Of a DNA stretch of 64,000 bases, positions 29,597 through 53,434 are shown one piece after another (position 1 is the stretch's first letter; each line of letters starts with the position of its first letter). The stretch comes from a phage: the sequence record PV357171.2; one strand, written 5' to 3'. A program made the translations under genes and the position numbers. The notes under the pieces were generated by a model that saw nothing but the letters and a program-made list of their open reading frames with translations, made no database searches and was not told the DNA's origin.

Positions 29597-30364
29597 TTAT
29601 TCAGCAGCCGCAGCTTTTGCATCCAGTTTAGCACGCTTAGCGGCACCATCATAGTCCTTAGCAACCAGACCACGACGAGACAGCATAGATTTAACACCGC
29701 GCTCAGATTTACCAGTTTTCTCAGCGATCTCAGCAACAGTCATGTTAACCAGATCCAGACCTTCTAACAGATCTTCACGAGTTTTAGCACTCGAGGTTTC
29801 CTGTACCGGCATAGCGGCGATACGACCTTCACGAAGCAGACTCAGAGCTTTACCACGGATCTGCTTGATATTACGACCGAAGTGAGCAGCGATAGCTTCA
29901 ATAGTAGCACCAGCAACAACCTGATTAACAAAATCAGTTTCTTCATCCGGAGTGAAGGAACGAACAGCAGCAGCTTTTTCAGTTGGTTTAACAGAAGCGG
30001 TCATTTCCAGACTCAGGATCTTACCCTGTACCTGCTTAGCACCGAACTGACCACCAGCTACAGCAGCAGCGATTTCAGCATAGGTATACTGACCAGCATG
30101 AGCGTTCAGGAAATCAACCAGTTCAGCTTCCTGCTCAGGAGTCCACGGAGATTTCTGCACTTCGTTAGCTTTCTGTACTTCAAAACCTTCTTTACGCAGT
30201 TTAGAGCCAACAGAGCGGGCAGTAACATCTTTGCCAGTTTCAGCAGCCAGTTCAGCAGCAATAGCAGCTACTTGTTCTTGAGAGATTACAGCAACACCCA
30301 GAGCAGTGGCTTTTGCTTTCAGAGACTCGGTTACACCTTCTACGTTCCAGTTCAGTTTAGACAT
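29597..30364 (-). CDS. putative DNA-binding protein (D5-like position)
   Basis: 255-aa Ala/Lys-rich ORF with internally repeated helix-rich segments; call by synteny. Confidence 0.4.
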   Translation of the reverse strand: MSKLNWNVEGVTESLKAKATALGVAVISQEQVAAIAAELAAETGKDVTARSVGSKLRKEGFEVQKANEVQKSPWTPEQEAELVDFLNAHAGQYTYAEIAAAVAGGQFGAKQVQGKILSLEMTASVKPTEKAAAVRSFTPDEETDFVNQVVAGATIEAIAAHFGRNIKQIRGKALSLLREGRIAAMPVQETSSAKTREDLLEGLDLVNMTVAEIAEKTGKSERGVKSMLSRRGLVAKDYDGAAKRAKLDAKAAAAE

Positions 30365-31136
30365 TATTATTTTTCTCCAATAGTTCTTTAATCGACAGGA
30401 TTTCTATCCCATTCGTTTCGGCTTTCTTATAAGATGAGGAAGAACGTTTTGATTCATCCTCACAGATCAGGTATTTGACGTCTTTGGTAACGGATTTCTT
30501 AACCGTATATCCTAGACCTTCTAAATAGTTTGTTGCATCCGTTCTATTTGCAAAATCTTGCAAAGATCCGGTAATACATACCGTTATTCCGTTTGGTTGG
30601 GCTACTAGACCATCAGTGATGATGACCTCAGCTTTAGCACCTTTAATACCAGTTGTGAATTTCCACGGTAATTCGATAACATCCTTGCCTTGTGGGGAAT
30701 TTAGCCAGGCTTTATAATTTTCTCCAGCCTTGCCGTCAGCCTTCACATCATGGAAGCTAGTGCAATTTTGGGATAATTTCTTTGCTGCAACCTCTCCGAT
30801 TAGAGGGATTCCTAAAGAACCGAGAACTGAACCAAAGTCAATGTCTCCGCGAACTTTAGTATTTAATTCGCTAATTAACTTAGCGGCAACCTTGCTACCC
30901 ACGGCTCTAACCAAATCTTCTTCGGTTAGGTAAAATAGTTCTGAAATCTTCGTCAGCTCCAGCTTCTCAATAGTTTTTGGACCAAAGCCCTTTAACTTCA
31001 TTTTTGAACAGAAGTTCTCAATTAACTTACTTGATTGCGCTGGACAGTTGGACTTATTCCGACAAAATAATTGTCCGTTGACAAGATCTAGCTTAGAACC
31101 ACAAGAGGGACATTGTGTTGGAATTTCGATTTTCAT
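30357..31136 (-). CDS. NAD-dependent DNA ligase, C-terminal subunit (Zn-finger and HhH domains)
   Basis: CPSCGSKL...FCRN...C Zn-finger typical of LigA plus helix-hairpin-helix region; ATG at 31136 one codon inside the TTG of the ORF track. Confidence 0.7.
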   Translation of the reverse strand: MKIEIPTQCPSCGSKLDLVNGQLFCRNKSNCPAQSSKLIENFCSKMKLKGFGPKTIEKLELTKISELFYLTEEDLVRAVGSKVAAKLISELNTKVRGDIDFGSVLGSLGIPLIGEVAAKKLSQNCTSFHDVKADGKAGENYKAWLNSPQGKDVIELPWKFTTGIKGAKAEVIITDGLVAQPNGITVCITGSLQDFANRTDATNYLEGLGYTVKKSVTKDVKYLICEDESKRSSSSYKKAETNGIEILSIKELLEKNNNV

Positions 31137-31166
31137 CAAATTTCTTCCTTATCAATTTATATAAAT

Positions 31167-31195
31167 ATTATAGCAAGTATTTAAGCATTTAGCAA
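31167..31195 (-). promoter_or_regulatory. early promoter for ligase C-terminal subunit
   Basis: Reverse complement TTGCTAAATGC, 17 bp, TATAATATTTATATAAATT. Confidence 0.65.
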
Positions 31196-31259
31196 CTACA
31201 ATTTTAACTAACTTTGCTTACCCTCGCCATAACTTTCTATCCCTCAACTGAATGATAAT

Positions 31260-31288
31260 AGTATATACCTAAGCGGCGAAAATGTCAA
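31260..31288 (-). promoter_or_regulatory. consensus sigma70 promoter (TTGACA, 17 bp, TATACT)
   Basis: Reverse complement TTGACATTTTCGCCGCTTAGGTATATACT in the spacer between the ligase halves. Confidence 0.5.
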
Positions 31289-31340
31289 TAACCACTTTAT
31301 AATTCCGATATGGTAGATGGGTAGCAAAGGGTTACATATA

Positions 31341-32315
31341 TTAATCGTATACTCGCTCTACTATGCACGGGATTACACCACCAGCACGAATCACTCGAAT
31401 CTGGCAACCGATCTCTAGATCAAGAGAGTTAATATAATCAACGTTATTAAGAGTCGCTTTAACAATTGTAGCGTCATCAATAATTACCGGTTCGAAATAT
31501 CCAACAGGAGTTACTTTACCAGAAGCCCCTACCTGCCACTCAACTTTGAGAAGAGTTGTAATTTCGCCTTCTTCATCTTGTTTAATTGCATAAGCACCGC
31601 GAGGATGTTTATTCGTCCAACCTTCACGGAAGAATTTATTGTTGTCATTAATACGAACAACTTTACCATCCGTTGGATACCAGTTGAAGTAGTTTTTAAT
31701 GTTCATTACAGTGATGAAATCTTCGTTAGCCAACCAAGACATATCATCTAAATAAGAACCTGTAATACCTACAGAATCTTCTGAACACTGAATACCATAA
31801 GCTACAAAGATTAATCCACCTTCCGCAATACGTTCGATGAAATCATCTTCTTCTTTTAAGTTAATAGCACCTGAAGCGTAGTTACGTTTGTTTTCTACTT
31901 CTTTAGTGATAAGAACTTCACCCGTGATTTGAGTTGGTACTTTTTGGGAAATCTTTTTCGGGATGTTCAGCAATCTAACGTTGCTTGTGACATCATTCCC
32001 TAGAATACCATTACCACGAGTTAACGCTTGAACAAACGTTCCGTCGATGTACAACAGAGAAATTGCGCAACCGTCTAGCTTATCAGTTTCTACGTCTTCA
32101 AGAGTAGTGAAGGGGGCTTTATCACCACGATCGAAGTAAACTTTTTGTAAAGAATACATACGATACAGATGTGGGATATCACCTTTCGGGCCGATAGCAT
32201 CTTCCGCCGTTGGGAAACGTTTTAACAGACGGTCATATTCTTCATCAGATATTAAAGACATACCCTGATAATATGCTTCTTGACAGCGTTTAATAAAGTC
32301 TTTTACATTAGTCAT
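31341..32315 (-). CDS. NAD-dependent DNA ligase, N-terminal adenylation/OB subunit
   Basis: KxDG adenylation motif (TDKLDGCAISL) and downstream nucleotidyltransferase motifs; ends with a stop before the Zn-finger part. Confidence 0.8.
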   Translation of the reverse strand: MTNVKDFIKRCQEAYYQGMSLISDEEYDRLLKRFPTAEDAIGPKGDIPHLYRMYSLQKVYFDRGDKAPFTTLEDVETDKLDGCAISLLYIDGTFVQALTRGNGILGNDVTSNVRLLNIPKKISQKVPTQITGEVLITKEVENKRNYASGAINLKEEDDFIERIAEGGLIFVAYGIQCSEDSVGITGSYLDDMSWLANEDFITVMNIKNYFNWYPTDGKVVRINDNNKFFREGWTNKHPRGAYAIKQDEEGEITTLLKVEWQVGASGKVTPVGYFEPVIIDDATIVKATLNNVDYINSLDLEIGCQIRVIRAGGVIPCIVERVYD

Positions 32316-32588
32316 TTATTCTGCCTCATAGTACGTGGGCTGTCTAGTGGACCCGTGCCATGTATAATTTTTGCAAAGATGCAAATATGTAGTTTTTACT
32401 AGCCTATCTGACAACGGAGAGTATATTTCAGCTGTTAATACTTCTTTTTCGTAATGAAGTGAAATCAGCTTATACCCACTTCTAGTTTTAGTATACTTTT
32501 CTCCATTAATCTTCTCCTCCCACATAAGTATAAGAGGCTGTCCGATACATGGGAAAGGTTTAAGTGTACTTATATTTATCTTTTTCAC
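32316..32588 (-). CDS. hypothetical protein
   Basis: 90-aa ORF with GTG start 8 nt after GAGAGG; own promoter. Confidence 0.4.
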   Translation of the reverse strand: MKKINISTLKPFPCIGQPLILMWEEKINGEKYTKTRSGYKLISLHYEKEVLTAEIYSPLSDRLVKTTYLHLCKNYTWHGSTRQPTYYEAE

Positions 32589-32618: not shown

Positions 32619-32647
32619 ATTATATAACAAAACTGAGTTGAAAGCAA
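32619..32647 (-). promoter_or_regulatory. early promoter
   Basis: Reverse complement TTGCTT, 17 bp, TATAATATTTATATAAATT. Confidence 0.6.
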
Positions 32648-34848: not shown

Positions 34849-34877
34849 ATTATACAGAAAAATTTTCCTGAAAGCAA
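34849..34877 (-). promoter_or_regulatory. early promoter
   Basis: Reverse complement TTGCTT, 17 bp, TATAATAGATTCATAAATTTGAGAGAGGAG. Confidence 0.6.
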
Positions 34878-53405: not shown

Positions 53406-53434
53406 TTGCTAAACGCTTCAAATTCTTGTATAAT
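53406..53434 (+). promoter_or_regulatory. early promoter
   Basis: TTGCTA, 17 bp, TATAATATACTTCATAAATT. Confidence 0.65.

Follow-up and report, generated by a model that had tools for sequence, protein, structure and literature searches.

The window analysed here (the whole stretch of 64,000 nt from sequence record PV357171.2) belongs to a T5-like phage (Demerecviridae), and it carries, with a probability that we put at about 0.93, a T5-like two-subunit NAD+-dependent DNA ligase, whose LigA and LigB chains are encoded by two genes separated by a spacer that holds the promoters PK28b and PK28a. The features of this locus are the following:

32315..31341, minus strand: ligA, 324-aa ORF with the stop codon TAA at 31343-31341
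31340..31137, minus strand: ligA-ligB spacer, 204 nt, non-coding
31260..31288, minus strand: upstream promoter (T5 P-K 28b), TTGACA-17-TATACT, 11/12 consensus matches
31167..31195, minus strand: downstream promoter (T5 P-K 28a), TTGCTA-17-TATAAT, 10/12 matches, extended -10 TG
31136 (ATG)..30357, minus strand: ligB, ORF of 259 aa, or of 260 aa from a TTG at 31139
29597..30364, minus strand: D5 DNA-binding protein gene, an ORF with orthologue annotation in T5 and T5_ev212

The ORFs end and restart where a preliminary description of this DNA had placed them (31341 and 31136), and the spacer, given there as about 200 bp, measures exactly 204 nt. An AAGGAAG ribosome-binding site lies upstream of ligB, and the stop of ligB is overlapped by 8 nt by the start of D5, the next gene in the same direction. 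Comparison of the ORFs with the annotations of T5 and T5_ev212 showed the same neighbourhood, consisting of a transcriptional regulator, ligA, ligB, D5, the D6 DnaB-like helicase, and primase. The T5 genes ligA/ligB (T5.116/T5.117; AAU05253/AAU05254; NC_005859) are orthologous to those of the window and share their order and neighbours, the amino-acid identity being 87.6% for LigA and 98.5% for LigB. Compared with T5, the ligA described here is a divergent allele, with ~70-87% nucleotide identity over codons 1-250, for which the top hit in the phage collection reached 93%. Moreover, a 90-aa ORF precedes ligA here, whereas in T5 a promoter is found directly upstream of this gene.

From the domain content, LigA is predicted to be the catalytic part of the enzyme (domain Ia, adenylation/nucleotidyltransferase domain and OB fold), and LigB its DNA-binding part (Zn finger, HhH and BRCT). 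In LigA, Pfam recognised PF01653 DNA_ligase_aden (83 bits; cut-off 27) and PF03120 DNA_ligase_OB (78.8 bits; cut-off 32.9), and the KxDG motif reads DKLDG, its lysine K79 aligning with K115 of E. coli LigA. In LigB, BRCT scored 35.1 bits (cut-off 21.3) and HHH_2, with 24.4 bits, stayed under its cut-off of 27, while the N-terminal zinc finger CxxC...CxxxxxC corresponds to C9/C12/C25/C31, all four being invariant across 7 lineages. Pfam and alignment thus agree with the initial assignment of the first ORF as the adenylation/OB part with KxDG and of the second as the Zn-finger/HhH part. For domain Ia, AYYQGMSLISDEEYDRL aligns with YRYYVLADPEISDAEYDRL of Thermus filiformis and with EIPDAEYDRL of E. 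coli in weak phmmer segments (3.1 and -2.6 bits), and the same weak alignment would put LigA Y15, Y16, D24, Y27 and D28 at NMN-binding positions. In domain Ia of E. coli LigA, the NMN-binding residues Y22, H23, D32, Y35 and D36 give NAD+ specificity.

The break point was located by alignment to a single-chain enzyme, as had been proposed at the outset. Residues 79-138 and 213-321 of LigA align to residues 115-178 and 282-390 of E. coli LigA (2owo), and residues 3-122 and 179-253 of LigB to its residues 402-529 and 596-666; this puts the cut between the OB fold and the Zn finger, in the linker that joins them (E. coli ~393/402), and, being placed exactly there, it leaves no domain damaged or missing. 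The domains do not lie on one polypeptide, given the stop after the OB fold, the 204-nt gap and the separate start of ligB. Since both ORFs align end to end with E. coli LigA, the locus encodes, as first described, a naturally split form of an NAD-dependent ligase that is normally made as one chain. Single-chain LigA (E. coli 2owo; Klebsiella jumbo phage Miami) shares with the ligase described here the succession of adenylation, OB, Zn finger, HhH and BRCT domains, probably with Ia in front, as well as the catalytic lysine and the zinc-binding cysteines, at ~25-30% identity, but its single polypeptide measures 671 aa in E. coli and 634 aa in Miami, whereas two chains of 324 and 259 aa are encoded here; the adenylation domain is also shorter here, covering positions 7-119 of the 253 of the Pfam model.

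The ligase of Providencia phages PR1/PSTCR5, for which two structures have been deposited (PDB 9hu3 and 9i5i), is split at the identical place and shows ~55% amino-acid identity to the ligase of the window, the matches extending over the full length (LigA vs 9hu3_A, E = 5e-104; LigB vs 9hu3_B, E = 4e-80). Each entry comprises one chain named "DNA ligase (NAD(+))" and one named "DNA ligase subunit B", the latter being 100% identical to the protein of phages PR1 and PSTCR5. Our literature search found no paper on the 9hu3/9i5i structure or on a T5 ligase assay.

In one genome, a broken gene would resemble a 204-nt interruption of a single-chain enzyme, and the split could then be read as a sequencing or assembly artefact, or as a decaying gene broken by insertion in a phage that uses the host LigA. 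To this reading we give practically no weight, and the comparative data rule it out, in that (i) the arrangement in two genes is found in 473 phage records that match the region, where the annotation is mostly that of subunits A and B of a ligase, and in 80 IMG/VR contigs, from unrelated samples, (ii) all annotated loci (12/12; gaps of 192-1051 nt) and all IMG/VR loci (80/80; 38-100% identity, gaps of 55-1359 nt) are split, with LigA ending at residue 319-324 and LigB starting separately in each of the IMG/VR loci, and the break lies at the same residue in the 92/92 loci compared, (iii) the 120 best LigB homologues of a 5.8-billion-protein set are 190-263 aa long and likewise split, (iv) neither ORF is disrupted anywhere, both having a start and a ribosome-binding site of their own, and the catalytic and zinc-binding residues are kept, (v) substitutions are mainly synonymous (74 synonymous ligA codon differences vs T5, against 40 that are not), and (vi) for a homologous pair, two chains were expressed and their structure solved. 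Purifying selection acts on both genes. The 80 IMG/VR loci, the 12 annotated loci and the top 120 LigB homologues included no unsplit close relative, and single-chain LigA was seen solely in distant proteins, namely those of jumbo phage Miami and of a contig that looks bacterial and is listed under the name "Acinetobacter phage MD-2021a". The spacer is thus no artefact, and the downstream ORF, since LigB aligns to LigA, is ligase-derived; the earlier suggestion that the split is a T5 feature and not new also agrees with the ligA/ligB annotation of T5 and with the 473 matching records.

A single chain could in principle still be made if the spacer were removed or bypassed, whether by a self-splicing intron, translational bypassing, stop-codon read-through or split-intein trans-splicing. 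Phages with introns (T4 td/nrdB) and with bypassing (T4 gene 60) offer precedent, and ligB is in frame with ligA here, as 204 nt make 68 codons. The spacer, however, contains on reading six stops in the ligA frame, and the frame relation between the two genes is not kept, since the T5 spacer measures 202 nt and gaps elsewhere 55-1359 nt; in Vibrio phages and in Salmonella phage SP3 entire unrelated genes occupy the gap. A search of Rfam with positions 30900..31600 (E up to 10) returned chance-level matches, all far below the gathering scores (best E = 0.57), in line with the initial view of a spacer devoid of intron-like features, and RNAalifold on seven lineages gave zero pairs and hence no consensus leader structure. 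Intein halves would find no space, as the two ORFs follow each other contiguously along E. coli LigA (393/402) and there are no extra terminal residues, and PDB 9hu3/9i5i show two separate chains. We therefore regard this route to a single chain as having a negligible chance. Taken together, the comparisons show that the split is of old date and has become fixed in this lineage of phages, and that it is neither an artefact, nor a pseudogene, nor an intron.

The two promoters seen in the spacer by the preliminary description, one TTGACA-17-TATACT and one of a family type, coincide with those annotated in the RefSeq record of T5 (NC_005859) as "promoter P-K 28b" (66366-66440) and "promoter P-K 28a" (66459-66533). 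Between the window and T5, the ligA-ligB spacer shows 99.5% identity, and from ~-80 of P28b to the ligB ATG all bases are the same as in T5. P28a is a T5 early promoter of the family type with an A-rich stretch upstream, and its form TTGCTn-17/18-TATAAT was shared by ~20 other promoter-like sites in the window in a scripted scan. A generic promoter scan of the region showed no overall enrichment (7 sites found vs 8.1 expected), and its top-scoring sites were P28b and P28a. That these two exceed chance is supported by their top scores, by the keeping of their position at ~50% ligase protein identity, and by the coinciding T5 annotation. By sequence, P28b and P28a are the classical sigma-70 early promoters PK28b and PK28a of T5, to which the T5 annotation and the literature would assign their activity; according to PMC7472727, 19 T5 promoters were defined by in vitro transcription (Gentz and Bujard 1985). 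The same paper gives an oligonucleotide that spans -12..+2 of N25, and by analogy with it transcription from P28b would start near 31253, giving a leader of ~117 nt, and that from P28a near 31160, giving a leader of ~24 nt.

At least one promoter was found at the ligA/ligB junction in every relative examined. In phages of E. coli, Klebsiella, Proteus, Providencia and Vibrio, the tandem pair keeps its position at ~-152 and ~-59 from the ligB ATG, the P28b position (~-152) being kept in six lineages and the P28a position (~-59) in all lineages compared; the spacing of ~94 bp within the pair is kept across Demerecviridae lineages with ~50% identical proteins. PR1/PSTCR5 have tandem promoters at ~-154 and ~-58, akin to the pair described here, while environmental relatives that are further removed have one promoter, in a gap of 55-118 nt.

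In the window, our scan detected no terminator-like site after ligA, and ligB is for this reason probably also co-transcribed with ligA; the PR1 record, in contrast, annotates a terminator right after ligA. Transcription from PK28b and PK28a would add to this, running into ligB, D5, the DnaB-like helicase and primase, and since the promoters stand at the head of this whole row they are not a ligB-specific device. The idea of a separate transcriptional input to the C-terminal half thus holds as regards the promoters before ligB, but not as an input to ligB only, since the promoters would serve the whole replication row and read-through from ligA is probable.

The leader fold was considered separately. 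It gave z = -4.3 in the window vs -0.3 to -2.3 in the other lineages, and 6 of the 23 strict TTGnnn-17/18-TATAAT sites of the window (same-geometry segments, P28a counted) reached z <= -3.4. A conserved leader hairpin was therefore rejected: like-geometry sites also fold strongly, the other lineages fold more weakly, and the hairpin is not exceptional, so that we claim no function for it. Within the T5 group, the fold of the P28b leader extends over the sequence of the P28a promoter.

A further reading holds that the junction is more than a gene boundary, being either a conserved promoter-pair regulatory module for ligB-D5-helicase-primase, possibly acting through promoter occlusion or RNA processing, or a homing-endonuclease landing site, in which case an ancient insertion of such an endonuclease could have created the split; we consider it unlikely, at roughly one chance in eight. 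Genes do occur in the gap elsewhere, and added genes enter it solely upstream of the promoters. Vibrio phage AG74 has a DprA-like gene there, with close homologues in L047, L048 and L050, and Salmonella phage SP3 a GIY-YIG endonuclease gene, which bears no sign that an endonuclease caused the split. The gap ORFs of Proteus phage M4H10_20 and Vibrio phage 234P1 gave neither a Pfam nor a PHROG match, and that of TrudiRoth gave no Pfam match. Phage genes in pieces are known from the T4 topoisomerase (gp39/gp60) and from Aeromonas phage Aeh1, where nrdA is split by the mobE homing endonuclease. As in the T5-type ligase, a normally one-chain enzyme is there specified by two adjacent genes, whose products reassemble as LigA and LigB would, and the junction can, as in Aeh1, host a free-standing homing endonuclease, of which the GIY-YIG gene of SP3 is the T5-type case. 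Unlike in T4 and Aeh1, however, the T5-type split is a fixed trait of an entire family of phages, and most junctions hold promoters and not an endonuclease.

As to function, the solved homologue (~55% identical) and the biochemistry of single-chain LigA suggest roles for the two subunits. LigA would take AMP from NAD+ onto K79 and pass it to the 5' phosphate at the nick; LigB, made as a separate polypeptide, would join LigA non-covalently, and the two would rebuild around nicked DNA the C-shaped clamp of single-chain LigA. A different view has them working independently, LigA as a minimal ligase and LigB as a DNA-binding/BRCT scaffold of the replisome. This would account for LigB's own promoters and for its grouping with D5, helicase and primase: ligB heads the replication gene row with two dedicated promoters, so that ligA:ligB expression need not be one to one, and the distance between the genes can exceed 1 kb with other genes in between. 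It is also in keeping with the identity to T5 (85% for the ligA allele, 97% for ligB), which indicates that the two genes recombined independently. Against it, ligA and ligB occur together and in constant order in every genome examined, both chains were deposited in the same PDB entries (9hu3, 9i5i), and no variation was seen here in the zinc-finger cysteines, which in single-chain LigA connect OB with HhH. In addition, domain deletions of E. coli LigA by the Shuman laboratory reportedly showed that HhH is needed for nick sealing and that fragments without the C-terminal domains only self-adenylate. Independent action of the two proteins hence appears very improbable, and we retain the two-subunit ligase.

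Overall, the split ligase and its promoter pair are real but already described, the spacer promoters being the classical PK28b/PK28a of T5: the split ligase of T5 has been annotated since genome sequencing, the promoters are named in the reference record, and the structure of a two-chain homologue has been solved. What the comparative data add is that the cut is fixed in all relatives examined and that each of the junctions has one promoter or more. The locus is a clean natural case of an enzyme of several domains that is cut at a linker between them and probably put together again from two polypeptides, and may inform studies of early transcription in T5 or the engineering of split ligases.

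The two ligase open reading frames, their domains and both promoters of the spacer were re-found where the preliminary description had placed them, as follows:

32315..31341, minus strand: ligA ORF, 324 aa, stop TAA at 31343-31341
31288..31260, minus strand: upstream promoter P28b, TTGACA-17-TATACT (promoter scan)
31195..31167, minus strand: downstream promoter P28a, TTGCTA-17-TATAAT with a TG extension (promoter scan)
31136 (ATG)..30357, minus strand: ligB ORF, 259 aa; TTG at 31139

In Pfam, the first ORF matched the adenylation domain of NAD-dependent ligases (83 bits) and the OB fold of DNA ligases (78.8 bits), and its KxDG motif reads DKLDG (lysine K79); the second, which starts with a four-cysteine zinc finger (CPSCGS...FCRNKSNC), matched a BRCT domain (35.1 bits) and, weakly, HhH. 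The break point was placed by phmmer comparison of both proteins with PDB sequences, using single-chain E. coli LigA (2owo). LigA residues 79-138 and 213-321 correspond to E. coli 115-178 and 282-390, and LigB residues 3-122 and 179-253 to 402-529 and 596-666. Since the LigA C-terminus lies only three residues beyond position 321, the cut falls at about 393|402 in E. coli numbering, which by these alignments is the linker between OB fold and zinc finger. The proposed split of a normally single-chain enzyme is thereby borne out, and no domain is missing from the pair. For the domain Ia signature of LigA, AYYQGMSLISDEEYDRL, there is a weak alignment with the NMN-binding helix of LigA from Thermus and E. 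coli, which is compatible with NAD+ dependence.

The 2.3-kb ligase region matched 473 phage records, nearly all of them T5-like phages of Salmonella, Escherichia and Klebsiella. Phage T5_ev212 and RefSeq T5 (NC_005859) have this gene pair, ligA (T5.116) and ligB (T5.117), between the same neighbours as in the window (transcriptional regulator, ligA, ligB, the DNA-binding protein gene D5, the DnaB-like helicase gene D6 and primase). Within the T5 spacer, which is 99.5% identical to that of the window and shows no base change from upstream of P28b through the ligB ATG, two regulatory features are annotated, "promoter P-K 28b" (NC_005859 66366-66440) and "promoter P-K 28a" (66459-66533). The genes are also listed in PMC3632103 (ligA AAU05253, ligB AAU05254), annotation as a two-subunit ligase is routine in the literature, and 19 T5 promoters were defined by in vitro transcription (Gentz and Bujard 1985, as cited in a passage of PMC7472727). 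Both the split and the dual promoter have therefore already been described: what the window encodes is the NAD-dependent DNA ligase in two subunits known from T5-type phages, its genes separated by the likewise known early promoters PK28b and PK28a. For the split, the preliminary description had suspected as much.

In all twelve annotated loci compared (T5, T5_ev212, MET_P1_179_112, DaisyDussoix, BD13, TrudiRoth, phiR2-01, a Klebsiella phage, a Proteus phage, Providencia PR1 and two Vibrio lineages), ligA and ligB are separate, with gaps of 192-1051 nt. Scanning IMG/VR with a LigB alignment yielded 80 further loci (38-100% identity); in every one the LigA-type ORF stops at query residue 319-324 and LigB begins at a start codon of its own after a gap of 55-1359 nt. 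Even the environmental relatives from metagenome contigs, with LigB identities of 38-48%, keep the split. Among LigB homologues in a 5.8-billion-protein collection, the best 120 of 590 are all 190-263 aa long, and such single-chain NAD ligases as the phage collection contains are related only distantly (25-29% identity), for example those of jumbo phage Miami and of one bacterial-looking contig. As the genes are separate in every locus compared, the split is fixed in all T5-type relatives examined, which rules out an assembly artefact of the spacer, one of two cases that had been named as fatal to the description, as well as a recent pseudogene. The ligA codon differences between window and T5 are mostly synonymous (74 versus 40).

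In the PDB, LigA is matched best by chain A of the two-chain entries 9hu3 and 9i5i, a "DNA ligase (NAD(+))" of 339 aa (E = 5e-104), and LigB by their chain B, a "DNA ligase subunit B" of 248 aa (E = 4e-80). The latter shows 100% identity with LigB of two relatives of T5, Providencia phages PR1 and PSTCR5, and hence a homologous pair has already been made and its structure determined with both chains together; our literature search found no accompanying publication. At about 55% identity, LigA and LigB of the window phage would be expected to assemble likewise. A single product restored by read-through, bypassing, splicing or inteins is excluded by the stop codons in the ligA frame (six in the spacer), the variable length and content of the gap, the contiguous LigA alignment and the two-chain entries. 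The alignment to E. coli LigA leaves no surplus residues able to serve as intein halves, and an Rfam search of the spacer gave nothing near threshold, in agreement with the earlier remark that it lacks intron-like features.

The two promoter-like sites of the 204-nt spacer recur at near-constant distances from the ligB ATG in all cultured Demerecviridae lineages examined, the upstream site as TTGAC(A/G)-17-TATA(C/A)T at -151 to -155 and the downstream site as TTGCnn-17/18-TGnTATAAT at -58 to -60, although the flanking proteins share just about 50% identity. More distant environmental relatives mostly have gaps of 55-118 nt, and in most of these the scan matched just one promoter, as a rule some -50 to -70 from the ligB ATG; a few relatives carry large inserts instead. 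The P28a type recurs about 20 times in the window (A-rich upstream stretch, TTGCTn, 17-18 nt, TATAAT, ATATT..ATAAATTGA, ribosome-binding site). These stereotyped T5 early promoter copies, with the tail ATATT..ATAAATTGAG, lie on both strands, for example at 34877, 33863 and 32647 (minus) and at 53406 and 58638 (plus), and include counterparts of T5 PN25 (34877) and PN26 (33863). At 34877 the copy includes TATAATAGATTCAT, which a passage of PMC7472727 quotes as positions -12..+2 of N25. P28b has the consensus TTGACA and is devoid of the family features of the P28a type. The direction of transcription diverges at about 45.1-45.3 kb of the window.

The P28b leader (31167-31253, minus strand) contains a Shine-Dalgarno-like GAGGGA and, after it, an 8-codon mini-ORF (ATG at 31231, MARVSKVS). 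It folds at -29.4 kcal/mol (z = -4.3) into a long hairpin in which this upstream segment pairs, using G-U pairs, with the -35 and -10 sequences of P28a. At about this position, the inverted repeats of other lineages differ (perfect 10-bp in Proteus, perfect 12-bp in Vibrio AG74). Because leader folds in other lineages are weak (z = -0.3 to -2.3), RNAalifold found no structure shared across lineages, and segments of the same geometry reach z <= -3.4 at 6 of the window's 23 strict promoter-like sites, P28a included, the hairpin is left unexplained and not counted as a feature.

The end of ligB and the beginning of D5 share 8 nt, and ligB is the head of a transcription unit running into D5, helicase and primase. 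As no terminator-like site was found by scan in the window's spacer, transcripts begun at 32647, the promoter ahead of ligA, probably extend through ligB as well.

Codons 1-250 of ligA (31550-32315) share only about 70-87% nucleotide identity with T5, MET_P1, DaisyDussoix and BD13, against 95-100% for the final 200 nt of ligA, for spacer and ligB, and for the genes that flank the pair; the closest ligA in the phage collection reached 93%. Judged from these identities, the patch is a mosaic, the ligA and ligB alleles having been swapped independently. The site directly upstream of ligA is a variable slot: in the window, a 90-aa ORF (32316-32588, minus strand; phrog_35018, of unknown function) abuts the ligA start (TAA then ATG), T5 instead has a promoter there, and DaisyDussoix, BD13 and TrudiRoth have other small ORFs. 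The ligB homologues of Klebsiella phage vB_Kpn_3 (MZ079855, L015 2738-3507) and Salmonella phage STWB21 (P0066) go by the names "tail tape measure protein" and "tail completion protein" in the public records, evident mis-annotations.

Extra sequence, wherever the junction has any, follows the ligA stop and precedes the upstream promoter, so that the promoter or promoters directly before ligB are the constant element of the junction.

Genes and ORFs in the ligA-ligB gap of other phages and contigs
Vibrio phage AG74: DprA-like gene and 113-aa ORF
Vibrio phage 234P1: 98-aa ORF
Proteus phage M4H10_20: 55-aa ORF
Escherichia phage TrudiRoth (L003 2803-2997): unannotated ORF, ~64 aa
Salmonella phage SP3 (L041 1699-2340 = NC_048001 64022-64660), between ligA and P28b: GIY-YIG endonuclease gene, 213 aa
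IMG/VR contig L053: radical-SAM-like 303-aa ORF, large insert
IMG/VR contig L084: 270-aa ORF, large insert; HTH and NUMOD-like Pfam hits, sub-threshold only

The ATG of the SP3 endonuclease gene (Pfam 26.1 bits, cut-off 22.6) overlaps the ligA stop, and the gene occurs in no more than two distinct phages of the collection; NC_048001 lists "NAD-dependent DNA ligase" features under it, seemingly a mislabel. The TrudiRoth ORF starts at the same ATGAATAG overlap with the ligA stop, has the MNS start and an SxMLE stretch in common with the SP3 gene, and may be what a deletion has left of a homing endonuclease. What might be new, at most, is that the geometry of the tandem promoters is conserved family-wide and that the junction serves as an insertion slot, occupied in one case by a homing endonuclease.
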